Positions 18,611-59,973 of a stretch of DNA of 64,000 nucleotides are shown piece by piece. Numbering within the stretch: position 1 is the stretch's first letter; the number at the start of each line of letters is the position of its first letter. Under the pieces are notes generated by a model. That model saw only the letters and a list, made by a program, of their open reading frames with translations, ran no database searches and was not told the origin of the DNA. Origin of the DNA: Raillietiella orientalis (Eukaryota); contig JAYWIR010000043.1 of the NCBI GenBank assembly GCA_036172245.1, positions 1,240,001 to 1,304,000 on the forward strand, read 5' to 3'. Both the position numbers and the translations under genes were made by a program.

Positions 18611-20374
18611 ATGAATAAAAGTGCTTATTTATTTGAGAGAGTAGTGAGTGTAATCAAGGAAGGAACTGAAAAAAGATTGAAGGAAATCTTAAAATCCCTT
18701 GGCATATACACACCGAAAGTATGGAAAGAAGGTTACTTGCTACATCGAGATGTTTTTAAAGATGATCCTTGTCGCGTGGCCCGGTGTCTCTTATCCGGGG
18801 GAGACTCAGCTTTAGAGACACCTTACGACCAATCTCTCACGTCACTGCACATAGCTGTGATTCTGGGAGACCGGTCGAAAGTTGATTTTCTTTTGGATAA
18901 CAGTGAGAATGTAAATAGTGCAGATAAAAGAGGAAGGAGTGCCCTTCATTTGGTTGCAAAGCACGAGAACCGCGCAATTGCTAGATTGCTATTATGTAGG
19001 GGAGCAGATGCTAATGCTGTGGACGAAAATGGGATCACTCCTCTGCACATGGCTGCTGAAGAAGGATCTCTAGCGATCGCTGAGGAACTTCTCAAACATG
19101 GAGTTGATGCGAATTTTCCTACGGGCGTCAGTGCCATATCACTTCATTTCGAAGAAGACTTCAAAAGAATGCCGAATTCTGAATGTCTTCAAGCTTCAGC
19201 TGAAATCACAGCAACCGAAGGCACATCTTTTCACGTTACTTTTAGGAAACCACCTTTTCAAAACAAAGAAAATGCTTCCTCCACATATTTGCTTGGTACG
19301 ACGGCACTCCATATCGCCGCGGCTAAAAGAAATGCAGAATTAGTAAAACTTCTCTTGGATTTCCATTCCGATGTCAATTTGAAGAGAATGGATGGAGCAA
19401 CCGCCCTTCATGTTGCTTCTAGGAAATCAAATGAGAAAGTAGTAAAACTTCTCTTAGATGCTAATGCAGACATCAGTGCCATCGAGGAAAAGGGTTCAAC
19501 TCCTCTACACGAAGCTGTTAAGTATCAGAGAGTTGAGATAGCGGAACTTCTTTTGAGGCACGAAGCACGTGTGAACTTTAAGAGAAAGGACGGGAGGACT
19601 CCGCTTCATCTTGCCGTCGAGAATAAAAGTGATACACTCGTAAAGCTCCTATTGGATTACAAAGCAGATATCAATGCTCAGGACACATATGGAACAACAG
19701 TTCTTCATATGCTCACTTTTTGTGGAAGCATAAAAGTTGCTGAAACACTGCTAGAACACGAGCCTGATATGAATGTGGTGAATCAAAATGGCGAAACAGC
19801 CTTGGATGTGGCTCTCCATACTCTGAAATCTTATCATAACTTCAAGAGTCCTGATCGTGTTAGACCTTATTACCTCAGAAAAACCGTAGCCAAGCTCATT
19901 ATACAGCATGCTTTCAAGCTCAAATCTTCCGGGGATTACTTAAGTCAGCAGAATTTACAGTCTCTTGATGACCGCAAGGATGCCAATCCGATATTATTTT
20001 TGAACGCATGCCAAAGTGAACTCGACAAGATGAAACTCACGAATATCAGAAGGAATATATTCGTCTACGACATCTTAACTGAAAGTGTTCAGAAGGTGTC
20101 TGCATACATGAGGAATTCCAGCATGGCTGACTTCCTCAAATCAGAATGGTACAAAGAGGAATTTCCAATGTTTGCAAGTATGATAAAACAGCAGATTAAG
20201 AAGGCAGTAAAAAGGAATGAGCTACTGGAGGATTTTTACAGAGTTTTCCATTCTGCTCACAACAGCTGCCGCATTCTGCCATACACGTTTGCTGAAAGCC
20301 TCAGCAATTGCTTGCGGGATCAAGACCTGAAAAGTTACATACGTGGCCTGCAGAACGTGGACACCTGTGATTGA
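18611..20374 (+). CDS. Ankyrin-repeat protein with C-terminal PRANC/F-box-like domain (ANK-1, ~587 aa from first ATG)
   Basis: About 9 TxLHxAA-type repeats. The C-terminus CQSELDKMK...YDIL...FPMFASMI...RNELL...LPYTFAESLSNCLRDQDL fits the PRANC pattern. Uninterrupted ORF. Confidence 0.92.
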   Translation: MNKSAYLFERVVSVIKEGTEKRLKEILKSLGIYTPKVWKEGYLLHRDVFKDDPCRVARCLLSGGDSALETPYDQSLTSLHIAVILGDRSKVDFLLDNSENVNSADKRGRSALHLVAKHENRAIARLLLCRGADANAVDENGITPLHMAAEEGSLAIAEELLKHGVDANFPTGVSAISLHFEEDFKRMPNSECLQASAEITATEGTSFHVTFRKPPFQNKENASSTYLLGTTALHIAAAKRNAELVKLLLDFHSDVNLKRMDGATALHVASRKSNEKVVKLLLDANADISAIEEKGSTPLHEAVKYQRVEIAELLLRHEARVNFKRKDGRTPLHLAVENKSDTLVKLLLDYKADINAQDTYGTTVLHMLTFCGSIKVAETLLEHEPDMNVVNQNGETALDVALHTLKSYHNFKSPDRVRPYYLRKTVAKLIIQHAFKLKSSGDYLSQQNLQSLDDRKDANPILFLNACQSELDKMKLTNIRRNIFVYDILTESVQKVSAYMRNSSMADFLKSEWYKEEFPMFASMIKQQIKKAVKRNELLEDFYRVFHSAHNSCRILPYTFAESLSNCLRDQDLKSYIRGLQNVDTCD

Positions 20375-21499
20375 GATGCAGCAGAAAAATGATGCTGAAT
20401 TTCGTGGACTTCTTCAGCTACAGCGAAAGATTTGAGCACGTGGAGAGGAAGCAACTTTCGAAACAGCTTCACGAAGAGTGTTTCCTTTCTGTTGATACCC
20501 CAAATAGGATCCTTTTCCTCCCTATTACGCACCCCATGTCTACTCCCCCTGAAGCTTCCCTACTGGATCTATTGAAACCGAAACCTGAAGAACGAAGTAA
20601 CCGCCATTCTCAGAAAGTGGTTAATGGAAAGTGCAGCAGGGTCTACCACAGGGGCATGGCTTCTTCCTCGCACTTCACAAGTGATGCTTGTGAAACTGAT
20701 GGGAGAAGCCCACTGGACCATGGAAAAATTCAACCTAGCCGGAACCCTGCACTAGAATGGAAGAGCAGCTCGTGGATGCAGATCGTGATGGATACTCTCA
20801 CCTTCGAAATTTCAATGATGCAGCTCACACCACTTTCATTAAAGTTTAGGCAACATTGCCTGCGTGTTTCGCGTGTTTTGTTTCTTGCACGCAACTTGTA
20901 ATATGGATTAAATTAAAAGAAATTCTTTTCATTGCATGGAGTTCAATAACTGTATGGGATTTGCAAGGAAACATTCGAACGCCAACCTAAATAAAGGATG
21001 CTGTTGGTCAGGCTACATGGTAAGTACAGCAAAAAGGCCTTCGAAAAGATGATGCCGACATCTGGACATCTGGATAAGCCGAGTCCTAGAAATACTCGCT
21101 TTTGCTAAACTCGCGCTCTTTCAAAGATCGCGAAAACGTCTCGCATTATTTGAACAGCTCTATCTCCTGATATGGTTGCTATACTTTATCTCTTGTCTGG
21201 CAGACATAGTAAAATATGTTATAGAGGGAAGGGATCACAGCTTACTTACTGGCGTCCTCAGCATTATCTGAATGATAACTTCCTCTTTTTATTAGCAGCA
21301 TTTTTAGACCTTGTGTCAACTTCCTCATGAAGCTGCAGACGATTGGTATGAGATCGCCGTTTGACTGGCCACTTCCGGCGTCACTATCCCACTCACGAAG
21401 GACAGAGATGAAAGAGAGCTGCACGTAAAATCTCGAGTGACGAGGTGCCACAAGACCTCTCTACCGTTCCTCATCGGAAGTGGGAGGAACGCAGCTAAG

Positions 21500-24400
21500 C
21501 ATTCGCAACCACTCAGGACAGCAACACAATGACGTGTGAGGGAAGAGGTCGTCCTTCACGTGGGCCGGGGACCTTACTGCATCCGAGAGGCTCTTCGCAC
21601 AAGTTCCCCGATTCGGTTTTTTATATCCTTACGCGGGACACAAACAAAAAGAAGAGGTCGGAGAGAAAGAAACTCGAACGTTTTTCCAGAGGGCCTCACG
21701 TCCCGGCAAGGAAAACCTGCCACTCAGGAAAGGGTTGAGCGTCTATTCTGCCTTTCATAGGCAGCGTGACAAGGCTTCTTCTATGCAGAAGTCCCTGGAG
21801 GGACCCCTAGGTACTTAAAGCAACTGACCACGAGTCAATTGACAGTGATCCAGCCCTGTTACCCGGATCACGCCGCACCGACGGGAAGCACAGTCTCCCT
21901 GCTTATGCGGATGGCAGCTCCACGGAGGGTTAGCACGAAGAATTGCTCCAGCAATGCTGCCGAGGCTGACTGGAGCCGAAGATCGTCCGCATAGGGCTAC
22001 ATGGCAGGCGTTTCGAGGCACAAACTGGAAAGAGCAGCAAGCGATGTCGTGTACGCTCTCAGCACCACGCTGAAGAGCAGCGCACCCTGGCGGTCTCCTT
22101 GCCCAATCCCGCGCCGTACAGGTACGCGGTACACGTGTCGGCCCACGTACTTCCAGATGGGTTCGCTGAATATGCAGCCTGCCTACTTTTCCTCTTTCTG
22201 CTATTTGAAATGCATCCCATGGATACTCAGAATGCCAAACGACGATCTCAATGATCACTTTCCTCCCAGTCCGTCTGCTTGACAGCGGCCGACCCTCCTG
22301 GTGTCAGAAAGGTGTTCTGGATATCACCACTCGGCGCACCGGAGAAGGATATGAAACTGAATTTTCGCATCTTCGGCATGTTCTCGGGAAGGCAACAGGC
22401 AACTTCCGAAAAAACTGTCCTACACGCATCTTCAAAGAATCTCTGGCGATTCCCTTTCGTGTATTCGTTCCCATCCCATGAGCTGATGTGAATGGACTCC
22501 TTGCTTGCAAACGAGAGAAAATCTTCTCCCGCCTACCGGTCACCTCGCACGAAGCACCTTCTTCCCATGAACGTCCTTTATTGCAAGTGCCTCGGAGATA
22601 AGCGGTCTCTATTCAGGGGACGGAAGATCGGGAGGCATCCGTGGGAGCAAGCAGGGACCAATTCGTGACAATGAGGATGGGAATCGCTGAGCGGGGGGGT
22701 AACTGCACGGCAGAGCGCAGCAAACGTTCTCAGTGCAATAAGCACGCCTGAGGCTGTAGTACCAGGGATTAAGGGTTCTTTTCAACGGGATGCTCCTTCA
22801 GCTCGTTGGATGCTCATCGTTTGGGTGCTTCTGCTGTATCCTCCTCCTCCTATCAAACTCTTGCAAGAAAGAATCGCATCGTAGGAGGGTGAGGGACACT
22901 TCTTGGCGTATTCGGCATCCTATGCAGGATGCCTGCAAGTTCCAACTTGAGTTGAGGGAGCTGCTGCAGTCTTAAGGTGAACAGAGTAAAGGAGATCAAC
23001 CAACGGGTTGGCGTCTCTCGTCTCCACGCCTGCATCACCATCGTGGCTTTCTCCAACACCGCGTAAGCAGCAAAGGGCTGCAATCGACGCCGCAGGCGGC
23101 ATTCCTCTGAAGGCGCCAAATGTTTCTCTTGGTGGAGCGGAAACTCCTGGGTCTCCTACCTCCCCGCGAACTGCACCTCCCGACTTCCGGATTCAGTCCC
23201 CACTCGAGGGAAAGCGGTACGGCGCAAGCGACCACCACCTGCTCTGTCCGCAACGTGGCACATACCCTCCTCAGTCGGTGCAGGAGGTCGTCAAGAAACC
23301 AATGAATGCTCTTTTGGTTTCTTAAACCCCTACTACCGCAGCGCTTTCTTCCTTCAGGAAGATACGTAACCAAGGAACTTCAGAAAGGTGGAAAGTGATC
23401 TGCAGAATCCAAAAAGAAAGGAAATTTCCGCTAGAGTGCAGTGAACGGATGCTGACTGACTCTGAAACGTCCACGTTTACCATCCAAAGGACTGAGGAGC
23501 TGGCCTAACAGATCTTGAGGAGATTCCTACTGAATTTGTGACGCTCTTAGCCGCATTCACACTCACCTCGTCCACTTCCTCAAGTTACAGAAGAAGCGGA
23601 ACGCTGAGGCTCTTGCATGGAGGTTATCCAGGCGAGGCTTTCTTCTTCACCACTGGAATTCACCAAGGACGTGCCCCTGACTGAGCGAAACTCTTTTTGA
23701 AGATCACCGCGAGATAGCCCACGAGGGAAGAGAGAAAAAGGAACCTGGGAGCATCCTACAAAGAATGAACAAAACGTAGAGGCACACAGCGCGATCCCCA
23801 TTCCAAACACTCGGAGAAAAACACTTTTTCTATTTCTTTACTTTTTCGTTTCCTCTTTCCCTTGGCTCCCCCCCAGCCACAGCGTCACCGAGACGCCCGT
23901 CCGCCTGGCATGCTAAGCTCCAACTTTGAAAGCCGTGCCGACCAAGAGTTCCATCCAAGAATGCGCGTTCGTTGCGTGCAAAAGAAACGCTGAGACGTAA
24001 GCGGGTGAAAAACGTCTGCGGGAGGCGAGCTCTCCATTTCCTGCTCGTGCAGCACGCACGGTGCCCCGGGTTGCCAGAGCAGCTGTTATGCCCTGACCCT
24101 GCATTCGGGGCACCCGGGCTCCTGAAGTCGATTCGCACTTGTGGAAAAGCGCGCCTGTTCCCGATGACCTTCCCCAAGCCCACGAGCCAGAAGGACGGCG
24201 GATGGGGCTGGAAAGGAAACTGCCCAATCGAGCCCTTCCTGCGGTCCCGGTCCTCCGGATTGGTGATTGCAAAAGCTACGGAGGAAAGCGTATCGCCGCT
24301 ACACCGTGGCTCCCGGAGGGCACAGCCAATCTCCCTGCAGAGGCCCTGCATCTGCTGGATATTCAACCGTCCAGAACGCTTTGCAGGCGACTCAGCTCCG

Positions 24401-25760
24401 GCTCGATCTCGAAATGGTCAGACAGGACGGAAATCCCTGTCCGCGTCGTGCTCAGCTCGGCAACGCAGATGGTCGTCAAGGTGCTCGACCGAGTGCTGCA
24501 TTGCAGGCCCATCGCTGAGTGAGTTGCTCGCGTGCTCATAGAACTGTTCGTCCATCTGCGCTCGAGGGCCTCGCCAGCGGACGTGAATCTACGGCACACG
24601 GACGTGGCAATCGCGTTGGATCAGATGCGCCCCAAGCGGGTAACCGCGTCGCGCAGCCGCTGGCCTTCGAGCCAACCGAAGAATCGCGTGCTGTCTGACT
24701 GCACGTTGCGGCCACGCAGGCGCGTATGCGCCAAGAGATCGATGGCATCGGACCGCTGGAGCACGCCAGTCGGCCCACGGGCGCTTCGCATGGCGTCGCG
24801 GAGGCGCGCGTGCACGAGGAACGCGACTCTGCGCCTGGGCCAGCAAGCACACAGCGCCAGCGAGGCTCACCCTGGGGGCACGCGCCTCGATTTCCCTCCC
24901 CTCCTCCGACGGAACGCTTTGGCCTTCCTGGTGGAGGGCGCAGACTTCGGGCCACGGCTCGCCTTCTTCGCGCCGTCGAAAATCCAAACCGGGAGCATTC
25001 CGAACGGCGATTCGCGATCGGCGCCAAGAGGAGGACTGCCCTCATTGCTGCTGCTGGGAAGTGCTCGTGGCGACTGCCGCTTCGCGTGGAAGCAGAGAAC
25101 TCTTGTCGGCAGAGAGGCATGCGGAGGGGCCGTTCCTCCGTCTCTCCCTGCGAGGACTTTGGACGATCGACATCTTCCTCGGAGGTGCTCCACGGACACC
25201 GTCGTGCAATCGGGCGCTGTCCTCGGAGGATTTGGCCTCGCGGGCGCTCGCATCGTGCGTTCTCTCGACGGGATTTTCCGTTCCCATCTCGGATTGCGAA
25301 GTTTGCCCGCGGGATTCAGCCCTCGGGGTTCTTAATTGTTTGACCTTTTCGGCCGACTTCCCCCGCTGCAAGGTCCTCTGCAGGGTCGGCAACCAGTTGT
25401 CGACCTTGCCGAGGACACGACGGTCTTCGCCACCTTCCTCGGTTCTCGACTTGCATACTTGGATCGCGACGACTCCTGTCGTTCCCTGTTGCGGACTTAC
25501 CCGCTCCTTCCGCTGCCCTTCATGCTGGTGGCTCGAGGATTCCCCTTCCCTCTTCTCTTCTTCCCATCCACCTCCAGCGTCCTTGGCTCCCACCGGTTTG
25601 TCCTTTTCAGTCCAGCTGAAATCGCGAGGGAGTTTCGTGCGCTCCCACGCTGATCGCTGTCGGCATTCTGCCGACCGCTGCTTTTCTTGTTTTCCTTATT
25701 TCGCGCGTGTGTTGTTTCCCTCGACTCACGGAAATCGCTGCGTTTCTCGCGCATGCACCA
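21500..25760 (-). mobile_element. Best-preserved L1/Tx1-like LINE relic (ORF1, APE, RT; internally deleted, non-functional)
   Basis: In order: knuckle-like SCSGNPGHRACC, FRSVRG and ITSMQEP (APE), RPLIS, EKIFSR, RRGIGQGDRQGALLF (~22075-22115), YADDL (21979-21993), FKYLGV (21802-21819). Confidence 0.8.
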
Positions 25761-25761
25761 A

Positions 25762-28338
25762 CTGGCGTGGGCAGATTGATCAGTGCGATGTGTGTTTTCT
25801 TTGCTGTTTGCCATCAGTTGAGAAGGTGGGAAGGCGTTCTGAACAGTGAGGCTTTTCATGGATTCCCATTGAACGTTGGTGTGGGTATGAGATGAGAAAA
25901 CACGTCACGGTGATGTAAGCTGGTAGTGGGGAGTTTCTGGAAGGAACAGAATAAGGGAGGTGCCCGGAATACCTAGCTCGAGAAGGAAGAGATGATGGAG
26001 AAGTTATCGAGAGGTGAGGAGGATGTAACGCTTGTTGCAGGACACGGAGTTTGCGTATGCAGAGGAGATTGGAATGTCTCCGACTTTAGAGGAGGGAGAG
26101 AACGATGGCAGAGAACGCTGTGACAGGGCACGAGAGGAGTAATGGATGAAGATCGCTGCATCCAGGAGAAGGTTAGGAGCGTTACCAGCCGGTTACGCCG
26201 GGGCGTTTGTTAAAACCCTACAGAAACGTGGTACGAGGCCCCACTAGCGGCCCACGCACTACCGGCCCACCTGCCGGGACGCAGACCAACGTGACTCTCC
26301 TCGGCAGTGGAGGGTGATGGGGGACAAAACAAAAAGAAAAATAAAATAGAAAGGAAACGAAAAGAGTTTGGAGGGAAGGGAAGGAAGGGATCACCGGCCA
26401 CCGGGAGGTGGGTGCATGCTTTGCAGGATGCCCTCGAGGTCCTTCTTTAGTCCACCCAGCTGGGGCCATCCGGTAGCTCTCTGCGGGAAGCGATCAGCAT
26501 ACGGGATGACGTCCCTCTCGTTGTGAACATCTTCGTCGTCGTGGCCATCGCTCCGAGCCGCCACGATGCCTGGGATGCAGCAAAGTGCTGCCAGGGCTGC
26601 GGTTGGCTGCAGGGCGTCCCGCACGAAGAAGAGGAGCCGGAAAACGTCTCTGGGCGCGCTGCCCACCGGGAGCCCGGGGGCCCATAGGGGACGGAGGGCA
26701 GGGCAGTCAACAATCAATAGGAGGAGGGAGCGGTTAGGAGCGAGTGGAAGGCAAGCGATCATGCGACTGGGTTGCCATTGTAATTCTGGTTCTGCGAGGA
26801 GATGGGTGGACGCAGGAAGTTTCGGAGAGGAAGGATTCGTGGATGAGAGCGAAACTAAGGTGGTATTTGTTTCGATGCCGCAGAGGGATCGAAGCATGAG
26901 ATTCCGGACTGAAGTCTGGAATATTGACTGGAATGGTGGTTGTATTTGGTTTAGGGCCGTGTACGGGACAGGGGGCAGACACGCATTTTCCTACCCCTGT
27001 GAAGATCGGGAATCGCGGCGTTGGGGAGGTCGAATGGTTTGTTTGTGTTTCTCACGGAGACAAGTGCGAGGGAGAAGGAAGAGTAGGCGAGGAAGGTGCG
27101 AGCAGGCGGCTGCAAAGAGTGGTGCGAACGCCGGACAAGGCAGTCGTCGATTCGCTGTGCTCCTCTGCGCAGCGCAGAGGAGGCGCGCACGATGACCGCT
27201 GCTGCGCGTGCGCACGATCGGCCGAGCTGACGTCGGAAGATTGGCGGTAGGCTCGGCGTGTGGCCGGAGAGCTGCTCACGACGCTTCGCGTTTGTGCTCG
27301 CGCAGGTCAGCTGCAGATGGGGGATGGGGGGGGGTCAGCTGCGCGTTGGCCACCGCCGTCCGTCGCCGGCAACGTTGGCGAAGGTCGGCGCGAGGGGGCG
27401 AAGCAAGTTCGCGGCTGCCAGACGGCCCGGAGACGCCGCGTGACAACCAGGAAGCGAGAGGAAGCAACGGAAAGGAAGAAGCGTCGTCGCTCGTGCGAGC
27501 GCAGCTTCCATCGCTGCCTAAGACGGTGGAGACTGCTCTTCCGGAGGCGGCATGGCCGAATTGCGGCAGCGCTCGCGCGGGAGCGTTGCAAGAGACCGCC
27601 ACTTCTCGTGCTGCCGGCGGCAGCTACGGAAGACGAGGATGGGGAAAAATAAGGAAGAAAAATGAGCCTGTATTCCAGGAGGTACGCTGGTTGATGCGGC
27701 GAAAATAATCAAGGAAGCCAAATTTATTCGGCGCCAGCTGTTCTTCGGTGACGCCGAGGAGCAGCGTAACTGCCATTCGAAGCCACTTGTGGCTGCTGCT
27801 CGCTCTCAGGCCAGACAGCAAGTGGGGATTTTTTGCACGGGGAAACGCGGAGCGACGTGCACGAGTCCTCCAGTCGGAAGGAGCCTCTTCCTGGGAACGA
27901 GTCCATGAAGCAGGTTCGTATCGTACATGGGTGCCTTCTTCCGCTGTGGTAGCCGGCGCTTTTACGATGCTGTCACAGCAGTGATACCAGAAGCATTCTT
28001 TGGATTACAAGCTTCCGTTAAGCTTTTCAGATCTGCGTCGTTCAGGTAGCCGGTAATTTTGTTGGTGCAGCAAAATGGTAAATTGGGCAGGTTGCGGAGA
28101 CGAGGAAAGAAACGATCGCACTTTCGTAGCAGCAGCCTACGCTTTCTAGCTTTTCTAAACTTCTTGCCTATCTTGCTAGCATAGATCGGAAATTCTCTTT
28201 GATATTCAGTCGACTCTAACATCTTCAGGTTTCTTTTTCTCCTTGTGAATGCAGCTAGCCTGTTCCTCTCTTTCCACAGAACATCGTGAAGCGGAAAGCC
28301 ATCGGCGATCATCCTGCTCTTCATTTTCTCCACTTCCT
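25762..28338. repeat. Inverted repeat 1, left arm (2577 bp; partner 34091-36667)
   Basis: Mirrored ORF set with coordinate sum 62429. Two substitutions noticed (DSFP/DSVP, NPKN/NPTN). Confidence 0.98.
27962..28338 (-). pseudogene. Antisense duplicate of the last ~125 codons (PRANC region) of ANK-2
   Basis: Peptide identical to the ANK-2 C-terminus except one residue. Truncated at the inverted-repeat boundary. Confidence 0.92.
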
Positions 28339-28419
28339 TTGACAGGGTGCATTTCCTTTACCGTCATCCGGCTCCACGTGCTCCTTCTACCTGGACTGGA
28401 ATATTGGGAATCTTCTGAT

Positions 28420-31533: not shown

Positions 31534-34467
31534 ATGGACCTCATTCAGTGTGGGATTCGCCTCTTAGTGATCATGAATGAGCAGGACAGAGTCAGTTTGA
31601 GCGATCGTGCACGTGAGCTTGAATTACTCGCTTCCTTGTTGGGGAAAGGGAGAGGCACGCGTGGTTCTTCGTGCCTATGCAACCTGCAAGTGTGGCGTGA
31701 GAGTTTCGTACTGTTCCGTTATGCGTTTGACTACAGTCACTGTGAATGGGTGCTTTCAAGTGATTCTGCCGTGAACGGAATCTGCAGCTCTTCTGAAAGA
31801 CCGCTCCCGTTTGGTGCTTTTAGCGATGACGTGGAAAGTATTGTGTTGCTTAGCAGACACGCTGACTTCGAAGTGGCATGCCGGACAAGACAAGGAATGG
31901 TTGAATTGCTTTTTCGTTACGAATGCTTTCATGTTATGGATGGCAGGGGAGTTAGCCGTCTTCAGGGAACCATGCGTCAGACGTACCCACGGATTCTTCC
32001 GGATCTTTCGGATCACGGAGCTCATGTTAACTCTGCTTGCATTCCGGCGATCGTAGGAGGTTCGACACGACTTTGTCTGCCCGCTACTGTACGAAACAGT
32101 GGAGAGGTCGCCATGTTTTCAGAAAGTCCAACGGAGTCCGATGCCCAGGGAATCACTAGGACGGTTCCTCTTCACAGCCATTCCGAGTACAGGCATTCGC
32201 AATTTGCCCAGAGCGATTTAAAACACGGAACTTTTTCTGACCCTGTGTGCACCGAAACCTGGGAAGGTTGTACATCGCTCCAGCCGACCCTTGGAAAGGG
32301 GAGAGAAAACATTTTCGAACTGATTTTGAATCACGGATATGTTGTCAACGACAAGGACGACTTGACTCAACTTGGTATTACTGTTCAGAATAGGGATGAA
32401 AAGAATGCCAGTAATCTTCTGGATCTTACTGCTGATGTTGATGTCAGAAGCAAGAGTGATAGCGTTCGTCCTCATCATTCACTTAGTGAGAAACGCGCAT
32501 CAGTGGCTGAAGATCATTTGCAAGACTTGGCTAACTGCGATGTCGTGGAGAAGGGAGTTGCACTTCATTCTTCAGCTCATGGATATGAAAAGCCATATGG
32601 AATGATGCTTGATGTCCTGAAACATGGTTTTACTGCTGCCCATACATGTGGAAGCCATTGCGGAGTAACGCATTTTGATCTTGGGCAGAGATATCTGGAG
32701 ATTGCTGAGTACTTTCTAAGGTGGGTTGCTGATTCCAGCAGTGCAGGTACCTCAACTTGGGAAAAAATTGGCGCGCCGCCTTGTAATGCAGTTCAAAGCA
32801 GGCACGAAGAAGTAACTGAGTTCCTTGAAACCGGCGTCCACTTCCGGAACGGAATGACTGCATGCCATGCAGCAGAAAGTGAACATCCGGAAATCACTAG
32901 GCTGCTTTTGGAAAGTATAGCTCACATCAAGGATGGTTTCAGAGAGCTTCGCTTTCCTCCTAGCCCGCAGTGCACCCGAGTTGCTGGGATGCTTCTCGAA
33001 CTCAGCGGTGGCAAGCACGAAGGACTCAGGATCAGACGCAACGTCCTCAGCATTGCTGCTGAAAGCGGATTCGAGAGAGTGGCGAAACTTCTGCTGGAGT
33101 GCGGCACCGATGTGGATGCCAAGTCGGAAGACGGGCAAACCGCTCTCTGTGTTGCTGCTCAGACGGGTTATGGGGAAATAGTGGAGCTTCTCTTGGAGTA
33201 CAACGCTGACATCAACGCAAGGACCAACACTGGCGCAACGGCTCTCCACGCTGCCGCAGAATGCCAGCACGAGAAAGTCGTAAAGCTGCTCTTGGAATGC
33301 AACGCCGACGTCAATGCTCGGTCGAAGGATGGGAGGACTGCACTCCACATTGCTGCGCAGACGAGAAATGAGAATGTCATCAGACTTCTTTTGAGACACA
33401 ACGCAGACGTGGATGCGAAGCGCGTCGACGGGACGACCGCACTCCACATTGCCGCTCAAACGAGAAACGAGAAAGCCGTAAAGCTCCTTTTGGAGTACAA
33501 CGCGGATGTGGATGCTGAGCGTGGTGATGGCATAACTGCGCTCCACGTGGCCGTCCAGAAAAAGAATGAGAAAGTTGTAAATTGCCTGTTGCAATATCAA
33601 GCCGACGTTAATGCCAAATGCAAGGATGGCACGACTGCGCTCCACATTGCAGCTCGAAACAGGAACGAGAAAATTGCACAGCTTCTTCTGGAAAGAGATG
33701 CCGATTTGAACCCGAGATGTGAAGACGGCGCCACCCCGTTGCACATTGCTGCTTCAAATGGAAATGTAAGAGTCGTTGCAGCTCTTCTTGAATATGGAGC
33801 GGACGTGAATGCTGAGACCAGCAGGGGAGAGACACCACTTGAATCAGCTCTTGATGGGTTCGAAGAGTGGTTCAAGCAAATGCCTTATGATGATGGCAAT
33901 TACGATTCTCATTATAATTATCAAAATCATCATCATCGTTCCATCTTCTCTTGCGAACTGAGCGCCAAAGTCCTCATACAGCACATGGTCCAGTTGAGGT
34001 GCAACCATCTGTACGTAAGTGAAAAAAATTGGCAGTCTGCTGCTAGCGAGGATCGGAAAGACTTGCGAACCTTCCAGATTCAATGCAAAGAGGAAGTGGA
34101 GAAAATGAAGAGCAGGATGATCGCCGATGGCTTTCCGCTTCACGATGTTCTGTGGAAAGAGAGGAACAGGCTAGCTGCATTCACAAGGAGAAAAAGAAAC
34201 CTGAAGATGTTAGAGTCGACTGAATATCAAAGAGAATTTCCGATCTATGCTAGCAAGATAGGCAAGAAGTTTAGAAAAGCTAGAAAGCGTAGGCTGCTGC
34301 TACGAAAGTGCGATCGTTTCTTTCCTCGTCTCCGCAACCTGCCCAATTTACCATTTTGCTGCACCAACAAAATTACCGGCTACCTGAACGACGCAGATCT
34401 GAAAAGCTTAACGGAAGCTTGTAATCCAACGAATGCTTCTGGTATCACTGCTGTGACAGCATCGTAA
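31534..34467 (+). CDS. Long ankyrin-repeat + PRANC-like protein (ANK-2); start uncertain (ATG at 31534 or 31573)
   Basis: Frame is open from 31402. About 9 clean repeats at ~33040-33855 follow degenerate repeats. PRANC-like CKEEVEKMK...FPIYASKI...RRLLL...LPFCCTNKITGYLNDADL. Confidence 0.9.
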   Translation: MDLIQCGIRLLVIMNEQDRVSLSDRARELELLASLLGKGRGTRGSSCLCNLQVWRESFVLFRYAFDYSHCEWVLSSDSAVNGICSSSERPLPFGAFSDDVESIVLLSRHADFEVACRTRQGMVELLFRYECFHVMDGRGVSRLQGTMRQTYPRILPDLSDHGAHVNSACIPAIVGGSTRLCLPATVRNSGEVAMFSESPTESDAQGITRTVPLHSHSEYRHSQFAQSDLKHGTFSDPVCTETWEGCTSLQPTLGKGRENIFELILNHGYVVNDKDDLTQLGITVQNRDEKNASNLLDLTADVDVRSKSDSVRPHHSLSEKRASVAEDHLQDLANCDVVEKGVALHSSAHGYEKPYGMMLDVLKHGFTAAHTCGSHCGVTHFDLGQRYLEIAEYFLRWVADSSSAGTSTWEKIGAPPCNAVQSRHEEVTEFLETGVHFRNGMTACHAAESEHPEITRLLLESIAHIKDGFRELRFPPSPQCTRVAGMLLELSGGKHEGLRIRRNVLSIAAESGFERVAKLLLECGTDVDAKSEDGQTALCVAAQTGYGEIVELLLEYNADINARTNTGATALHAAAECQHEKVVKLLLECNADVNARSKDGRTALHIAAQTRNENVIRLLLRHNADVDAKRVDGTTALHIAAQTRNEKAVKLLLEYNADVDAERGDGITALHVAVQKKNEKVVNCLLQYQADVNAKCKDGTTALHIAARNRNEKIAQLLLERDADLNPRCEDGATPLHIAASNGNVRVVAALLEYGADVNAETSRGETPLESALDGFEEWFKQMPYDDGNYDSHYNYQNHHHRSIFSCELSAKVLIQHMVQLRCNHLYVSEKNWQSAASEDRKDLRTFQIQCKEEVEKMKSRMIADGFPLHDVLWKERNRLAAFTRRKRNLKMLESTEYQREFPIYASKIGKKFRKARKRRLLLRKCDRFFPRLRNLPNLPFCCTNKITGYLNDADLKSLTEACNPTNASGITAVTAS

Positions 34468-36667: not shown

Positions 36668-38050
36668 CGAGCATTTCTTGTTTCGGGCATCCACTATCTC
36701 TTACGGAAAGACAAAAAGTCTCTCCAGGTCAGTCTCTCCTTCTTCCAACCGAGCTATTGCAGCTACCGTCATCTCCATCCTGTGAACCACAATCATTGCA
36801 TGAACCGTACAGGTCGTGCGCAAAACCAGGAACACCTCCATCCTACGCCATTTCCGTCGCAAAACGGCTTCCTCACCTTCCAAACCGAGATATCAGCGTA
36901 TCCTCCGCTCATCGCATTTCCCCTCTTTTGAAGAAAAGGGTGTTCCCAGCATCAGTACTTCTAGCGCTCATTCTGCAGAGAATGAAGTCATTGCAAACAC
37001 ACTTTCTCCCTTAAGGACGAACACCTTTCTGAGCGGATCACTGCACTTTTTTCTCTTATCCTGGTCAGCTTCCAAAACAGCACTTTCATCCCCAAAGGAA
37101 ACGCCTTTTTTTCCAGCCCTACTCTCATCCCATTTTTCTCTCTCCACGTCATCGTACTCATTCTGCTAATTGCAATCAGCAAGCTTATGACAGCAACGCA
37201 TGCTCGGAGGAAATCTTTCGGCGAGCCCAGTCAACGCCAACACCACTCCTTCAACACTCTTCCAGCAATTGACCATCGTCAACGCTCTAAGAGAGTCCTT
37301 TACGAGGCAAAAATGCTTCACCTTGCGGTCATTCGTATTCACATCTGAAGACAAACTTCGGCTCGAAATCCCCCACATGCATTCAACGCGAAGGATACTT
37401 TCCTTTGGTCCGCAGCTCCCACTTATTACACCTACAACGCAACAAATGGGAAGAGATTGCCCATATTCAAGTCCAGGAAGGAGGACGTGGAGCCGGATGA
37501 CGGTAAGGGAGGAGCACCCTGTCCGGGATGAAACCAGGCCTCACGTGGTGCCAGGAAACCGACCGGCGCTGCCGTGGATTGCGGACCGCCTTACAGCCGT
37601 CGAGAGCTTTTTCTCGCGAGGGTTTCGCGGCCTTTGCTTAGGAAATTCGGAGCTCCACAGTGGAGAGTGGGGACGGAAATCCAGAGCTCATCTTTCAGGA
37701 TGCAGAACTTGATCAAAGATCACTCCTCAGTATGGTGACCAGAATCGGGGCGCGAAGCTTCTGCTGGTCACCGAGGACCACTCGATGGCCGTGCACACAG
37801 TCAATCCCTGAGGAGGAACGAAAAATAATTCCGCCAGTTATCGGTGCACGCGCTTCGGCCGATGCCGAACCTGTTCCCGGAATCCCCGGGATCCTGTGCA
37901 GGGTCGCGTCCGCGGAGCGTGCGACTCTTGCAGAAGGAACGCAGCTTCCTCATAGACTGGCAGCGGACGCGATGTGCGCCGCCGACTTGCGGCTCGCGGG
38001 CAAGCCGAGCGTTCCCAGAAAGTTCATCAAGACGGGACATCCGGGGAGGA
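36230..38050 (-). mobile_element. Decayed LINE ORF2 (APE start to RT, internally deleted) abutting the CRESS rep
   Basis: VLMNFLG (~NxRG), AFLLQESH (~LQETH, ~37919-37945), SFGDESA linker, FPLNVGVG (~F....GVRQG), GEEDVTL (~YADDVTL). Confidence 0.6.
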
Positions 38051-38903: not shown

Positions 38904-38994
38904 GGTGAGACTTGTAGAAATTCACTGAAGGTAATAACCGCGGATCGGTCGTAGTTGGTGCCTTATGTACGCCGTAAGTGCGTAGTTTGTGGCG

Positions 38995-50280: not shown

Positions 50281-50299
50281 CCCTTAGACACACGTATTC

Positions 50300-53350: not shown

Positions 53351-53399
53351 AGTCCAAATTTCCAGGAAGTTTTTTTCATTTTCGCTTCGGAACTTTTCC

Positions 53400-53798: not shown

Positions 53799-56700
53799 AG
53801 CTCACAGCATGCAAGTGAAGTTCCTGACGCATAGCTTCAAAGATCTTCTCTTTGCTGATGACGTTCAGGCACGTTCTGCAGGCGTTGTCAGTGCATGCGC
53901 GATTTCCCGTGTTGCCCTCGGGCGAAACATGCAGAGCAGCCGCCGGTTCCCAACGAAACCGCCCACAATTTGTAGACGCACATCTCAACGTGCTGAAACA
54001 ACGCACAGTCGTGAGGTCACGGAGGATGAAGAAAGCAGGAATGAGCAGCTGGAACCCGCATCGTGACTACCGAAACGTCCGAGTCAGGAAGCACCGATCA
54101 AGGCATCTGTCCTGCCTCGCATCTCACGGCGCGTTGCGGACCGATCACCACTTTGAGCAGTGGGCGGGCTCCGATTCACATGGCCTCGAGGCAGTCGCCG
54201 TTGCATCATCGCCTTACATCACCTGACCCGCTTTCTCAGCGTGACCTGAGTCCAGATCGTTCGATGGCACCCATCGCGGAAGGCCATGGCCGAGGAGCCA
54301 GCAAACGGCGTTGGCCGCGAGCGAAGCAATCACCACAGCCGAATAGAAAATTAAGCTGTAGCTGACGCGGAGCTGGAAGCCAAAGAAGGAAAACGGGAAA
54401 GCCATACAGGCAGGCGTAGGCCTTCCCTGAAGAGCAATTCAGGGGGACGATGCAAGGCATTTTTTTTGCATGGGAGACGAACACTGCCACCGAAAGTGGG
54501 CGAAACTACAGAGAACACTTGCCAGCAAACAAGAGTAAGCGATAAACGCTTTCTCCAAGAACGCTGATTCTCTTCTCAACATCCATGTTGACATCCAGAG
54601 CTCGCCATGCCCTAGCGTGGCCACTGTCCCTCCGCGTCTCACCGATCTCGCTTTTCAGCTGCAAACCACGCGAGCAGTTCGCCTTCTTCCACTTCCGCGC
54701 TCGCCTCGACTTCCCAGCGAAGAAATGTGGCAAGAAATGCCGAACGTGCGACCCAGGCAGCGTCTCGCGCATCCTCTGGCACAAGGTCCGCTACGCATCT
54801 GGATGGTGCATGAGAGCGAAGTGATTCCGTGTCACGTCAACAGGACGCACACGGGTGAGCTGGCGAAAAGTTGAAAATTTCTCCTCGCTGCCAAGTGAAA
54901 CCATGCAAGAGTCGCCCCGCAACCTGGACGGATGCGTACCACGAAAACCTCTTCCATGACAACCTTCAGCAAACTCTCGGAACACTTGGAAACCTGTCCA
55001 CCGGACCCTCGATCGGCTTCCAATCAAATGCGGCGGAGGACGCATAGCAGGCAACACCGCCATGCAATGTGCTCCTTTCTGAGGTCGAGAGAGTGGCACG
55101 ACCTCCAAATCCAACCGCAAAGGCCGTCTTGCTGCACAAATTGGCACTCTTTGCTCGTCAGTGGGGCGCGCCAAGAGCACAGAAGGGTGCGCCGAATGAT
55201 GGGCGGCGCACCTACGAATTCTGCCTGTACGATGAGCAGCAGCCTGTCTCCATGGCTGCACGCGCTCCGTGTCTCCCCCCTGGGCATGAAGCGCGTTCTT
55301 CTAGATGGAACACTGTCCCCTTCCAGTTTGCTGTGCACGGATGGCATCTTTGGGTAGGTTAAGATGCACAAGGGAAGAAAGTGACCACGTCGAAGGTAAC
55401 GACGGTCTTATGGAAGCGCTTCGCTTGCAGACGATCCGAATCGTCGCTTGCTGAGGTCCTTCTTTGGCAGGTTGCATTTTCGAATGGTGTCACGGGCGCT
55501 AACGGACGTAGCCTGCGGATGTGCCTTTGCATGTTGGCAGTCAGACTGCCCCCCATAAATACGCTGCTTGCAATCGGCACGCAGAAAGCACAGCCAGACC
55601 GTGGCGTGTGTCGTTGCTTCGACGAAGTGAATGTCGAGATCCTTTTTCACGTAAGCATACCGTTTGAAGGTTAGCTTGACCATGAATAAGAGTGCTTATT
55701 TATTTGAGAGAGTAGTGAGTGTAATCAAGGAAGGAAATGAAAAAAGAGTGAACGAAATTCTAAAATCCCTTGGCATATACACACCGCAAATATGGAAAAC
55801 TTACTTGCTACTTCGAGATGCTTTTAAAGATGATCCTTGTCGCGTGGTCGAGTGTCTCTTAGGCAAGGGGGACTCGGCTTTAAAGACACCTTACGACCAA
55901 TCTCTCACGTCACTGCACATAGCTGTGATTCTGGGAGACCGGTCGAAAGTTGATTTTCTTTTGAATAACGATGAGAATGTAAATAGTGCAGATGAAAGAG
56001 GAAGGAGTGCCCTTCATTTGGTTGCAAAGCACGAGAACCGCGCAATTGCTAGATTGCTATTATGTAGGGGAGCAGTTGCTAATGCTGTGGACGAAAATGG
56101 GATCACTCCTCTGCACATGGCTGCTGAAGAAGGATCTCTAGCGATCGCTGAGGAACTTCTCAAACATGGAGTTGATGCGAATTTTCCTACGGGCATCAAT
56201 CTTATACCACACTATTTGGAAAAATACTTCAAAAGAGCCCTGTATTCTGGACGTCTTCAAGGTTCAGCTGAAGCCACAGCAACCGAAGGCACATCTTCTC
56301 GCGTTACTTCCAGGAAACCACGTTTTCGAAACAAAAAAAATGCTTCCTCCACGTACGTGCTTGGTACGACGGCACTCCATATCGCCGCGGCTAAAAGAAA
56401 TGCAGAATTAGTAAAACTTCTCTTGGATTTCCATTCCAATGTCAATTCGAAGAGCATGGATGGAGCAACCGCCCTTCATGTTGCTTCTAGGAAATCAAAT
56501 GAGAAAGTAGTAAAACTTCTCTTAGATGCTAATGCATACATCGGTGCCATCGACGGAAAGGGTTCAACTCCTCTACACGAAGCTGTTAAGTATCAGAGAG
56601 TTGAGATAGCGGAACTTCTTTTGAAGCACGAAGCACGTGTGAACTTTAAGAGAAAGGACGGGAGGACTCCGCTTCATCTTGCCGTCGAGAATAAAAGTGA

Positions 56701-58137
56701 TACACTCGTAAAGCTCCTATTGGATTACAAAGCAGATATCAATGCTCAGGACACATATGGAACAACAGTTCTTCATATGCTCACTTTTTGTGGAAGCATA
56801 AAAGTTGCTGAAACACTGCTAGAACACGAGCCTGATATGAATGTGGTAAATGGGAATAACGCAACAGCCTTGGATGTGGCTCTTGATACCCTTTGTGGTA
56901 GTAGGTATTATGGGCGAGAGTTGATAGTACCTGTAGCTAAGCTCATAATACAGCATGCTTGCAAGATCTGCAGCATCGGGGACTCTTTAAGTATGTCAAA
57001 TGCATTGCCCCTTTCTGAATTCAATGACACCATAGAGTTTGTTAGAGATTGTGAATGTGAACTGGAGTTGATGAAGCACTGGAAAATTGGAAACTCCTTC
57101 ATGCACGATATCTTAACTGGAAGTGTTCAGAAGGTGTCTGCATACATGAGGAATTCCAGCATGGCTGACTTCCTCAAATCGGATTGGTACAAAGAGGAAT
57201 TTCCAATGTTTGCAAGTATGATAAAACAGCAGATTAAGAAGGCAGTAAAAAGGAATGAGCTACTGGAGGATTTTTACAGAGTTTTCCATTCTGCTCACAA
57301 CAGCTGCCGCATTCTGCCATACACGTTTGCTGAAAGCCTCAGCAATTGCTTGCGGGATCAAGACCTGAAAAGTTACATACGTGGCCTGCAGAACGTGGAC
57401 GCCTGTGATTGAGATGCAGCAGAAAAATGATGCTGAATTTCGTGGACTTCTTCAGCTACAGCGAAAGATTTGAGCACGTGGAGAGGAAGCAACTTTCGAA
57501 ACAGCTTCACGAAGAGTGTTTCCTTTCTGTTGATACCCCAAATAGGATCCTTTTCCTCCCTATTACGCAGCCCATGTCTACTCCCCCTGAAGCTTCCCTA
57601 CTGGATCTATTGAAACCGAAACCTGAAGAACGAAGTAACCGCCATTCTCAGAAAGTGGTTAATGGAAAGTGCAGCAGGGTCTACCACAGGGGCATGGCTT
57701 CTTCCTCGCACTTCACAAGTGATGCTTGTGAAACTGATGGGAGAAGCCCACTGGACCATGGAAAAATTCAACCTAGCCGGAACCCTGCACTAGAATGGAA
57801 GAGCAGCTCGTGGATGCAGATCGTGATGGATACTCTCACCTTCGAAATTTCAATGATGCAGCTCACACCACTTTTGAAGTCCAGCTAAGAGACTATGACT
57901 GAATGTTTCTGTTTCCTGAGCAAAAATTCTGACATGCAATAAATAGTAACTTTTACATTTCATTGCATGCAATTGAAAAACTGAATAGGGGGCTGCAAGT
58001 GAACTTTCGAACGCATCGCCACCAATCTGGGAAGGATGCTGATGGTTAGGCTACATGATGAGAATGGGAAACTCTCCCAAAAGGTGATGCCGACATCTGA
58101 ATACGCGAAATCCTAAAAAAAGAACTCCTTTGCTGAA
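53799..58137. repeat. Inverted repeat 2, right arm (probably the derived copy)
   Basis: Reverse complement of 39928-44266. Both ends cut neighbouring features. Confidence 0.98.
55682..57412 (+). CDS. Ankyrin-repeat + PRANC-like protein (ANK-4, 576 aa from first ATG)
   Basis: Intact ORF with about 9 repeats and a PRANC-like C-terminus. Confidence 0.92.
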   Translation: MNKSAYLFERVVSVIKEGNEKRVNEILKSLGIYTPQIWKTYLLLRDAFKDDPCRVVECLLGKGDSALKTPYDQSLTSLHIAVILGDRSKVDFLLNNDENVNSADERGRSALHLVAKHENRAIARLLLCRGAVANAVDENGITPLHMAAEEGSLAIAEELLKHGVDANFPTGINLIPHYLEKYFKRALYSGRLQGSAEATATEGTSSRVTSRKPRFRNKKNASSTYVLGTTALHIAAAKRNAELVKLLLDFHSNVNSKSMDGATALHVASRKSNEKVVKLLLDANAYIGAIDGKGSTPLHEAVKYQRVEIAELLLKHEARVNFKRKDGRTPLHLAVENKSDTLVKLLLDYKADINAQDTYGTTVLHMLTFCGSIKVAETLLEHEPDMNVVNGNNATALDVALDTLCGSRYYGRELIVPVAKLIIQHACKICSIGDSLSMSNALPLSEFNDTIEFVRDCECELELMKHWKIGNSFMHDILTGSVQKVSAYMRNSSMADFLKSDWYKEEFPMFASMIKQQIKKAVKRNELLEDFYRVFHSAHNSCRILPYTFAESLSNCLRDQDLKSYIRGLQNVDACD

Positions 58138-58142
58138 CTGCT

Positions 58143-59973
58143 TTGAGATGCGACGTCAGAGTGCATAGATTGCTTCATCTGGCGACTCTTTCTGCTGACA
58201 AGGCGACTGTGAAAAATTTTTTGAATAGAGGGGCGGAAGTGAATTCCCGGAATGGTATTGGATGCACTGCGCTCCATTTTGCGGTACTGCGGAACGATCT
58301 GAGGATAGTGAGATTGCTTTTAAGAAGAGGAGCGTTCGTCAATGCCACAGACAGATTTGGGGTTGCTCCCCTTCATATTGCTGCCGAGAAAGGATCTACG
58401 GCAGTGCTTATGGACCTCCTGAATTGTGCTGCGAATGTGAACCTCGTCGTAAAGTTTGAATTTTCTTCAAAACTGTATAAAAGGAAGAAATTTCGCCCGT
58501 CTGTGACAAATTCCACATCCTCCGCTGATGCTCCCAACGACTCCGTCACCATCTCCGATGTTGAATCTCTAGAGTGGAATCGGAGTGCCTTCAAGACTCC
58601 GTTCTATTACAAGCTTAATACTTATTTCAAGTACATGGCTGGAAGCACCGCACTTCACATTGCTGCGCATAACGAGAATTGCGAATCGGTGAAGCTCCTT
58701 CTGACCAACGGAGCCGACGTGAACTCCAAACTGAAGGACGGATCGACTGCGCTCCACATTGCCTGCAGAAGAAACAACTGGCGACTCGTAAAGCTTCTGG
58801 TTGGCTTCCAGGCTGATGTGAGCGCCAAGGACGCCAATGGGATCACCCCCCTTCAGATAGCTACCCTACAAGGGAACCTCAAGCTCATGAAACTCCTCTT
58901 GGATTGCAAGGCGGAAGTGGATGCCATGAACTGTCTCGGAACGACCGCGCTTCATATTGCTTCTGCCGATTCCGGGAGCTCACTGGCAGAACTGCTTCTG
59001 CAGTACGGAGCGGACGTCAACGTGAAGAGGACGCTGGACGGATCGACTGCACTTCACATTGCTACGAGCGTCTCATCTCCGAATGTGGTGAGTCTCCTTT
59101 TGGATCACAATGCAGACGTTAACGCCACTGATTGCTACGGGGAAACAGCTTTTTACATAGCTGTGTGGAGAAGGAAAATCGAGGTAGGGAGACTTCTTGA
59201 AATTGAAATCTAATGTTGTTGATGACGGTCAGTGTGAAAGAAATTTCCATCTGGCTCCTTTGTTCGCAGACATACGTATCGTTATGGATCTACTGGAACA
59301 CAGAGCGGATATTAACGTGGAGAATCAAGACGAACGGACACCCTTGGATTTCTCTATACTGATTCTCTATCATGCCTTCTATTTACGCAGCTCTTCTGAT
59401 TATCCTTTGGAATTTAAGATCAAGCGTAATTTTGATCGTGCAGCCAAGCTTGTTGTACAGTATGCTTTGATGCTCAAATCTTCCGGAAACTATGTGAGTA
59501 CTCATAATTCGAAATCCATTCAGAATTCCAAGGGCGAAGATTTGAGCTTTTTTATCGACCAATGTGAGAACGAACTCGAAAAGATGAAGTGCCGGAAGTT
59601 CAAAACGAACGCTTTGTTTCATGATGTTCTCGTAAAACGCACTGACGAGTTGATGCCCATTCTGAAGAATCCAAAGATCAGTAAGATCTTCAGATCAGCA
59701 CGTTACAAATCAGAATTTCCGATGTTTGCTTCGTTCATTACATATAAGTTGAAGAATATGGAAAAAAGGCGGAAGATGCTGAAGTGCTGCTATCCCGGTT
59801 TAGGTTATGTTTTCCCGTACTACTCCAGTTTACCGCAGACTTGCACAGAAATCATAGAGCGCAATTTGACTGATAGAGACCTAAGAAATCTGCTGCATGC
59901 TTTCGAAACTCGCTTCTATTCGCAACCGGGAGCACAGAAAAAGGCTCTGAATCTTCTGTTCCATAGTGCGTGA
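58143..59973 (+). pseudogene. Divergent ankyrin + PRANC-like gene (ANK-5), one frameshift at ~59200 and no obvious ATG start
   Basis: ORFs 58143-59213 (repeats) and 59197-59973 (last repeats + PRANC CENELEKMK...FPMFASFI...LPQTCTEIIERNLTDRDL) join if one A is removed from GAAATTG. It begins 6 bp after the inverted-repeat boundary. Confidence 0.85.

Follow-up and report, generated by a model that had tools for sequence, protein, structure and literature searches.

We analyzed a stretch of 64,000 nucleotides (nt) from the Raillietiella orientalis assembly GCA_036172245.1 (contig JAYWIR010000043.1, positions 1,240,001 to 1,304,000 of the forward strand), referred to here as the window and numbered from its first letter, and identified in it a cluster of intronless genes encoding ankyrin (ANK) repeat proteins with a PRANC-like C-terminal domain. 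With the standard code, four ATG-initiated open reading frames (ORFs) of 576 to 977 codons were found. Gene A (18611-20374, + strand) is intact and encodes 587 amino acids (aa), with an N-terminal module (aa 1-75), three ANK repeats, an insert, five to six further ANK repeats and a PRANC-like domain (aa ~407-587). Gene B (31534-34467, +; 977 aa), also intact, has a weak N-terminal module, about 400 aa of degenerate ANK-like sequence, nine canonical ANK repeats (aa ~505-800) and a PRANC-like domain at aa 788-977. Genes C (40653-42383, -) and D (55682-57412, +), found by the ORF and Pfam scans, are intact as well and encode proteins of 576 aa that differ by one residue. A fifth gene, E (58137-59973, +), is split between an ANK part (58137-59213) and a PRANC-like part in the +1 frame (59188-59973), with a single frame change within 59188-59213. 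Its open frame starts precisely at the outer boundary of the inverted repeat P2 described below (58137/58138) and aligns to gene A only from about residue 75, the N-terminal ~75 residues being gone; given this start, this alignment and the frame change, we classified E as a 5'-truncated, frameshifted pseudogene. The sixth piece, fragment F (27962-28338, -), repeats the final 377 nt of gene B and comprises the PRANC end only.

The next longest stop-to-stop frame in the window had only 401 codons and lay within a block of 60% GC, which places the ORFs of the cluster far above background. Since C and D are one residue apart and lie in the two arms of an inverted repeat, they represent one gene present twice. 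In total, the cluster has three distinct genes that are intact and intronless (A, B and C=D), as well as one duplicate, one pseudogene (E) and one 3' fragment (F). The first-pass annotation of this DNA had listed four open ORFs of ~576-980 codons with ANK arrays and a frameshifted fifth. Our ORF and Pfam scans recovered all of these, and the four frames are indeed open, but the number of distinct genes falls to three because D duplicates C; fragment F and the 5' truncation of E are additions to that inventory. When 11 family proteins were searched against the window by tblastn, no high-scoring segment pair fell beyond the annotated pieces and no other ANK or PRANC debris was detected between the genes, which are spaced 5-11 kb apart.

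The genes are distributed over two inverted repeats and a unit present in three copies. The arms of P1 (25762-28338 and 34091-36667) differ by 2 mismatches in 2577 nt, with no indels, and enclose a 5.7-kb spacer. The inner edge of the right arm cuts gene B inside its coding sequence (CDS), and it is for this reason that the last 377 nt of B are copied at the position of fragment F. The arms of P2 (39928-44266 and 53799-58137; 4339 nt) are 99.91% identical, with 4 substitutions and no indel, and are separated by a 9.5-kb spacer; gene C lies inside the left arm and gene D inside the right. Gene A belongs to a unit (17968-20836, +) of which two more copies exist, an inverted one with C and a direct one with D. 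The A unit is 91% identical overall to the C/D unit, and a weaker similarity extends to 21064. The breakpoints of the repeats and of the unit are sharp, and the sequence outside them is unique. The family has grown in place through segmental and inverted duplication, and the suggestion that it had been amplified in its host is borne out by these local duplications. We also considered whether the 2.9-kb unit could be a retrocopy or a mobile element, a proposal that was unsupported since its edges carry no poly-A tail, target-site duplication or terminal repeat. A separate direct repeat of ~2.8 kb (185-2986 and 6223-9026; 99.8% identical, copies ~6.04 kb apart) is a tandem segmental duplication in which Pfam recognized no coding content.

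Two inverted repeats with 99.9% identical arms, together with a direct repeat at 99.8% identity, could be taken as signs of an assembly artefact, either false inverted duplications produced by fold-back or symbiont or viral DNA joined to host sequence. We consider such an artefact extremely unlikely. The spacers between the arms (5.7 and 9.5 kb) are unique, the arms are distinguished by 2 and 4 substitutions without indels, the breakpoints are sharp with unique sequence outside, and gene A constitutes a third copy elsewhere that is 9% diverged. Contamination with symbiont DNA is excluded by the GC content of the genes (42-49%), by their ~30% identity to Wolbachia proteins and by the absence of neighboring bacterial genes.

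Pfam ankyrin matches were strong in every gene (Ank_2, E 1e-53 to 1e-72; E 1.4e-54 for gene E), and tandem 33-residue repeats were recognized both by Pfam (Ank and Ank_2) and in an AlphaFold (AF2) model. In the model of gene A, helix pairs occupy residues 78-170 and 229-400 with a predicted local distance difference test score (pLDDT) above 90, while the insert of ~50 aa between repeats 3 and 4 (aa 176-224) has a pLDDT below 50. Residues 1-416 of gene B had no Pfam match; the same residues matched the ANK arrays of relatives and also residues 541-778 of B itself (2e-11). The sole tandem signal that Tandem Repeats Finder reported in the window was the 99-nt ANK period inside gene B. Antisense to the canonical ANK repeats of B we noted a frame of 333 codons (32752-33753, -) with no Pfam match, which is probably a by-product of the codon composition of the ANK repeats.

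The C-terminal domain was compared with the Pfam PRANC model (PF09372; 97 positions, gathering cut-off 25.8 bits). In all five genes, as in the homologues, the match lies at the C-terminus directly after the ANK array and covers most of the model, with scores of 22.7 bits for A, 18.4 for B, 19.9 for C, 19.9 for D and 17.0 for E; fragment F scored 23.2 bits on the ORF 27962-28357. The isolated C-terminus of gene A reached 25.2 bits, still under the cut-off. A phmmer search of 1.84 billion representative proteins with the last 183 residues of gene A returned 392 matches at E<=1e-3 and 58 at E<=1e-10, always at the C-terminus. The best match had an E-value of 2.5e-20 at 33% identity, and none of the top 20 exceeded 38% identity. 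Nearly all of these top 20 have long ANK arrays; 16 carry PF09372 at E<=1e-3, and 11 lie at or above 25.8 bits. Similarly, 24 of the 30 members of our PRANC-domain alignment matched PF09372 at E<=0.01. All window copies have the family signature in common, namely KMK, FYDIL, RN, an invariant FP (in FPIYAS), FRKG..R..LL and a terminal LP...I..YL...DL..L. The last element is a truncated F-box-like motif (LP, a hydrophobic ladder and DL..L) that was seen in the alignments of A, B, C/D and E, the final L being replaced by Y in A, C and D; in gene A the domain spans 19889-20371 (+), is identified by PF09372, tblastn and AF2, and ends in LP..L..CL...DL. Since the scores fall just under the cut-off, yet homology to proteins that pass it is clear, we call the domain PRANC-like. 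Judged by its sequence, it is a divergent PRANC, homologous to the family and formally below the Pfam threshold. The PRANC-like end domain predicted in the first-pass annotation is confirmed by this C-terminal homology, which comprises the 392 matches and the phage hits given below, and the profile check proposed there gave strong ankyrin matches and PRANC matches, the latter below the cut-off, and no F-box match.

The AF2 model of the PRANC-like domain of gene A is almost entirely helical (pLDDT 85.2). When the domain alignment was searched against the sequences of the PDB, the sole match other than ANK proteins was the F-box of KDM2B, at the terminal motif, with an E-value of 0.1. The best Z in a wide VIA-align comparison was 6.0; it covered no more than the final two or three helices, as is often seen with helical hairpins, and we did not count it as a fold match; the best score in the ESM Atlas (0.83) is at most a lead. 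Relatives do reach the Pfam F-box cut-off at the position homologous to the terminal motif, with 20.7 bits for an ortholog of the phage protein gwv_1092, 20.5 for P0013 and 33.4 for P0022, a flea relative being among them.

The relatives link the window genes to Wolbachia phages and to arthropods. When the PRANC part of gene A was searched against phage records by tblastn, the hits were three records of Wolbachia phage WO (E 1e-19, 33.6% identity, 94% coverage). The hit in KX522565.1 is gwv_1092 (AOA49510.1), annotated as 'ankyrin repeat with PRANC domain protein', which the passages of Bordenstein & Bordenstein (2016; PMC5062602) on this gene place in the eukaryotic association module of phage WO. 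The whole gene A protein matched gwv_1092 by BLASTP at 2e-65. With the first 90 residues of the phage protein as query, residues 12-87 of gene A aligned with residues 12-87 of gwv_1092 (33.1 bits); C/D aligned less well (27.6 bits) and B only marginally (9.7 bits). The first 80 residues of gene A matched 25 ANK-PRANC proteins from outside the window at E<1e-3, all but two of them within their own first ~80 residues, and the N-terminal module stands out in the consensus of the full-length family alignment. The resemblance to a Wolbachia-type N-terminus, suggested in the first-pass annotation, is hence substantiated by the collinear match to the phage protein, and the homology spans the entire architecture, with the N-terminal module, the ANK array and the PRANC domain all aligning to gwv_1092. 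In our alignments, the two have the same order of parts, from the N-terminal module through the ANK array to a PRANC with a terminal LP...DL..L. They differ in length, gwv_1092 having 946 aa against 587 for A and 576 for C and D, which have 8-9 ANK repeats and the ~50-aa insert. They also differ in sequence (~30% identity) and in profile scores, as the phage-type protein passes the Pfam PRANC and F-box cut-offs and the window copies do not. Finally, the window genes lie in GC-richer, gene-poor, eukaryote-like DNA without phage or bacterial neighbors.

Among 301 sampled genomes of the bacterial order to which Wolbachia belongs, 7 matched the family profile (best 244.6 bits), and the best protein was 98% identical to gwv_1092. 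This ortholog scored 32.0 bits with PF09372, a model that was matched in 6 of the 301 genomes and above its cut-off in 1. The named eukaryotic relatives are all arthropods: Artemia franciscana, Ceutorhynchus, Ctenocephalides, Leptopilina, Halictus, Chrysoperla, Andrena, Lasioglossum, Nasonia, Phymastichus, Copidosoma, Uloborus diversus, Eretmocerus, Glypta and Pseudomyrmex. Scans of viral contigs with the PRANC domains of the gwv_1092 ortholog and of gene A gave no match, and none of the sequence searches linked the window proteins directly to poxvirus proteins. Plasmids searched by tblastn and a word-based protein search with residues 400-587 of gene A likewise gave no match. A pattern search of genome contigs for related loci yielded 110 pattern matches, none of which was confirmed. 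A literature search for PRANC in spiders, ticks, mites or crustaceans, or in connection with lateral gene transfer, listed no paper in which PRANC occurs.

We also examined the DNA between the genes, which had been described as a graveyard of LINE retrotransposons. None of 364 non-gene stop-to-stop ORFs of at least 70 aa matched a reverse transcriptase, AP endonuclease, integrase or transposase in Pfam, so the description is not borne out at this length, the scan not covering ORFs below 70 aa, where decayed LINE debris is possible. The scan left out 43 of 301 ORFs of 70-119 aa, 42 of them in copies at least 99.8% identical to scanned stretches and 1 at the window end, and about 18 ORFs of at least 120 aa in such near-identical copies. 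The only real Pfam matches among the 364 ORFs were fragment F and a 71-aa circovirus-like Rep fragment; matches to DAP_epimerase and Eapp_C below threshold were regarded as noise. Rfam had no match in the window. The non-gene DNA has a GC content of 0.52 and a CpG observed/expected ratio of 0.91, and the genes are AT-richer (GC 0.42 for A, 0.43 for C/D and 0.49 for B). By these measures the surroundings look like the nuclear DNA of a weakly methylated eukaryote; a eukaryotic nuclear location is also indicated by the spacing of the genes (5-11 kb) and the lack of bacterial-type neighbors.

Two further features of the surrounding DNA were recorded. The Rep fragment (38709-38921, -) scored 30.2 bits with PF02407 against a cut-off of 26 and contains FNNY-type and HLQG motifs of a circovirus/CRESS-DNA Rep endonuclease; the ORFs beside it had no helicase or other Pfam match, and on its sequence it looks like a short endogenous viral fragment. 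Two GC-rich blocks (24000-28000 and 34000-36700; 58-61% GC) show strong GC skew of opposite sign in the P1 arms and contain long open stretches in more than one reading frame, of up to 401 codons, with no Pfam match and no tandem repeat.

The copies of the unit were then compared for signs of constraint. Genes C and D say nothing in this respect because they are nearly identical. Between A and C the Nei-Gojobori method gave 0.12 for the synonymous (dS) and 0.10 for the nonsynonymous divergence (dN), with an overall dN/dS of 0.83. In the ANK part the ratio was 1.35, which was not significant (p 0.46), and neither positive nor purifying selection on this part is demonstrated, since the estimate is confounded by mosaicism. 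The divergence varies strongly along the unit. The non-coding flanks inside the unit differ between A and D (17968-20836 and 55039-57874) at 2 of 1105 nt, while differences occur at ~18 of 338 synonymous sites once the most diverged patch is set aside (Fisher p 3.7e-10). Even when synonymous sites alone are counted, divergence is far greater in the coding region of the unit than in the flanks, an excess for which gene conversion is the only explanation we can offer. The most diverged patch comprises the linker and first PRANC part of gene A (aa 406-485; 19826-20065, +), with a dS of 1.28 and a dN of 0.50 relative to C; the PRANC core that follows (102 codons) has 5 differing sites and a dN/dS of 0.35. 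Nucleotide identity in the patch is 0.62 for A-D, 0.58 for A-E and 0.47 for D-E. As A is about equally near to E and D while D is far from E, the patch of C/D must have a different ancestry, and by comparison neither gene B nor gene E was its donor.

The changes between the copies were also examined with regard to the reading frame and to their place in the proteins. The indels in the patch (9, 12, 6 and 3 nt) are all in frame, and between A and D all five CDS indels are multiples of 3, whereas most indels just outside the unit are not. Genes A and C are separated by ~167 substitutions and five indels with both frames open; of 20,000 simulated sequences in each case, 25 had kept the ORF open after 167 random substitutions and 647 after 84. 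In the eight ANK repeats, 15 of 15 amino acid differences fall at register positions 21-33 (loop and hairpin) and none in the first 20 positions, which form the two helices. The insert between repeats 3 and 4, of which 54 residues were compared, differs at 21 positions. The family-invariant residues (FP and the LP...DL..L end) persist in genes A, B and E, although about every second nucleotide differs among them. The in-frame indels, the simulation and the spared helices together indicate that the frame, the scaffold and the PRANC core are maintained and that variation is channeled to the loops and the linker. We read this pattern, which is drawn from sequence comparison, as mosaic evolution through gene conversion with selection against disruption. 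The earlier claim that the family is under selection holds as far as maintenance of the frame is concerned, and the dN/dS values do not add to it.

These data also bear on the view that the genes are non-functional relics of an old insertion, duplicated recently and now drifting, in which open frames would reflect youth instead of selection. The overall dN/dS, the broken state of E, the fragmentary state of F, the uninformative near-identity of C and D and the lack of a recognizable ANK consensus in half of gene B would all suit it. The frames of A and C, however, have stayed open through their substitutions and five in-frame indels, an outcome that few simulated sequences reached. No difference has entered the ANK helices, the invariant residues persist in copies as distant as A, B and E, and gene B keeps a frame of 977 codons, so that we regard the relic view as very unlikely.

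Phylogenetic trees were built with FastTree from 166 PRANC domains and with IQ-TREE from a 61-row subset. In both, A, C/D and E form one clade with a protein of Uloborus (Shimodaira-Hasegawa (SH)-like support 96 and 95), and gene B stands alone on a long branch; a single clade of all four window PRANC domains was not rejected (approximately unbiased test, p-AU 0.734). A short-branched clade of 64 rows (SH-like 99) holds a Wolbachia/phage WO sequence together with flea, lacewing, bee, ant, weevil and Artemia sequences, and the window sequences lie outside it. The composition of this clade suggests either that transfers have been many and recent or that those host assemblies contain symbiont sequence. 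No row has a shorter end branch than the Wolbachia one, and measured by path it is the closest to the window domains, being the closest non-window row in the case of A, C/D and E. As far as the sequences go, the trees describe a family common to Rickettsiales or their phage and to a patchy set of arthropods, with an old diverged lineage in this host, and they give no direction of transfer. The earlier proposal of horizontal acquisition stands to the extent that the family is common to Rickettsiales or phage and scattered arthropods, and the tree leaves its direction unspecified. On direction, Pers & Lynch (2018; PMC6161386) argue for several Wolbachia-to-insect transfers, while Bordenstein & Bordenstein (2016; PMC5062602) report that the PRANC of gwv_1092 has greater homology with invertebrate sequences than with bacterial ones and consider a route from animal to phage.

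Taken together, we think it probable that the locus is a resident ANK-PRANC cluster of a nuclear genome, probably that of an arthropod, and that it belongs to a family common to Wolbachia or phage WO and arthropods through an old transfer and encodes putative SCF (SKP1-Cullin-F-box) adaptors. The cluster is old and is not a fresh bacterial insert, as indicated by the lack of bacterial-type ORF neighbors, the gene spacing, the GC and CpG values and the identity of at most 38% among the top 20 matches. The family may have been transferred long ago, with a Wolbachia-like bacterium or phage on one side and an ancestor of the host on the other, more likely from bacterium to host, and would since have diverged to ~30-38% identity. 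Several observations weigh against this reading. No window copy reaches the Pfam PRANC cut-off, and none of the window proteins had an F-box match (PF00646 or PF12937) at E<=0.01. The PDB sequence search with the domain alignment found no solved PRANC structure, its DARPin and ANK matches resting on few ANK columns, and Foldseek found no match to the PRANC model in the PDB at E<=0.001. The dN/dS values of A against C, overall and in the ANK part, belong here as well. The Uloborus row is a long branch (1.75 and 2.34), and the trees are star-like and poorly supported in their deep parts: support is below 80 for 73 of 162 inner branches in FastTree and for 32 of 58 in IQ-TREE. The family occurs in 7 of the 301 sampled genomes of Wolbachia's order as against spiders, a branchiopod and at least five insect orders, a distribution that, from sequence, fits an arthropod origin of the family equally well.

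The last point leads to the alternative that the family is an old arthropod invention that descended vertically with many losses and was captured from hosts by phage WO, Orientia and poxviruses, the window then being an ordinary lineage-specific expansion. Its broad spread (spider, Artemia, flea, lacewing, weevil, bees, ants and parasitoid wasps), its rarity in the bacterial order (7 of 301 genomes for the family and 6 of 301 for PF09372), the affinity of the gwv_1092 PRANC to invertebrate sequences with the animal-to-phage route discussed for it (PMC5062602, as above), and the position of the window copies outside the short-branched clade containing the Wolbachia sequence are all in keeping with such a history. 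It fits less well with window genes that are intronless and collinear with a phage protein over its full length, or with a bacterial row that has the shortest end branch and lies nearest by path to the window domains. Vertical descent is also hard to fit to the 64-row clade, which mixes Wolbachia, a crustacean and five insect orders, and Pers & Lynch (2018; PMC6161386) argue for several bacterium-to-insect transfers. On balance we give the arthropod-invention account a modest chance and favor the old transfer between symbiont or phage and host.

We compared the cluster with the ANK-PRANC sets described from other arthropods. In the text of PMC6161386, the CLANKs of Nasonia and Chalcidoidea and the sets of Pseudomyrmex, Ceratina, Bemisia and Microplitis appear as lineage-restricted, amplified families with a PRANC or PRANC-like C-terminus, which cluster with Wolbachia proteins, diverge rapidly and vary in ANK number; the window genes resemble them in these respects. 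Almost all Nasonia CLANKs have introns according to that text, whereas the window CDS are intronless. In the window the copies are, in addition, arranged in near-perfect inverted repeats and diverge in a mosaic way. The window domains did not group with the Nasonia, Copidosoma, Eretmocerus or Phymastichus rows, and membership in the CLANKs was therefore rejected. They lie outside the named insect clades as a whole, with a spider protein as the nearest.

As to function, the proteins may act as substrate adaptors of SCF, a role that we infer by analogy. In this scheme the groove and loops of the ANK array would bind a target protein, and the terminal F-box-like helices would dock on SKP1, bringing the target to a Cullin-1 SCF ubiquitin ligase. 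Poxvirus ANK-PRANC proteins dock on the SCF ligase. Likewise, the portion of PMC4148323 on Orientia reports that Ank-PRANC proteins pull down Cullin-1 and Skp1 and that those without the motif do not. The window proteins have the same design of ANK repeats and a C-terminal truncated F-box-like motif as the poxvirus ANK/F-box (PRANC) host-range proteins and the Ank-PRANC effectors of Orientia tsutsugamushi. The latter two are effectors acting on a foreign host, whereas the window genes lie in the presumed host genome. By the same analogy, cellular F-box proteins would share the proposed mode in which a repeat binds the substrate and the F-box binds SKP1, and the F-box of KDM2B was a weak match to the family profile (E 0.1). 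The F-box-like piece of the window proteins differs from theirs in being short, in lying at the extreme C-terminus instead of the N-terminus and in being missed by PF00646 and PF12937.

The pattern of divergence led us to a bolder and tentative suggestion, one that we hold to be rather unlikely. The locus might be a diversity-generating arrangement for ubiquitin-ligase adaptors, in which inverted repeats and ectopic conversion from unseen paralogs shuffle the patches that recognize targets (ANK loops, insert loop and linker). Under it, the recognition part would vary, whereas the regulatory flanks, the helices of the scaffold and the core of the PRANC domain would stay identical. The suggestion derives from the excess of differences at synonymous sites over the flanks (~18/338 against 2/1105; p 3.7e-10) and from the placement of 15 of 15 ANK differences in loops or hairpins. 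If it is true, an effector fold derived from a symbiont or phage would have been turned into a rapidly evolving set of recognition proteins of the host that serves in immunity or genetic conflict, similar to other variable families of repeat receptors.

ANK-PRANC genes are a textbook example of genes that have moved among arthropods, viruses and Wolbachia or its phage, and Nasonia has incorporated them into its embryonic patterning. Genes of this kind are already known from wasps and ants, and the locus described here is one more example of them, not a system of a new kind. It adds a deeply diverged, locally amplified set that apparently lies outside the insect groups described, with a spider gene as its nearest relative, and in which the whole phage-WO-type architecture, N-terminal module included, is retained at ~30% identity. 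The mosaic divergence of its copies offers a concrete locus for studying gene conversion and loop diversification in this family.

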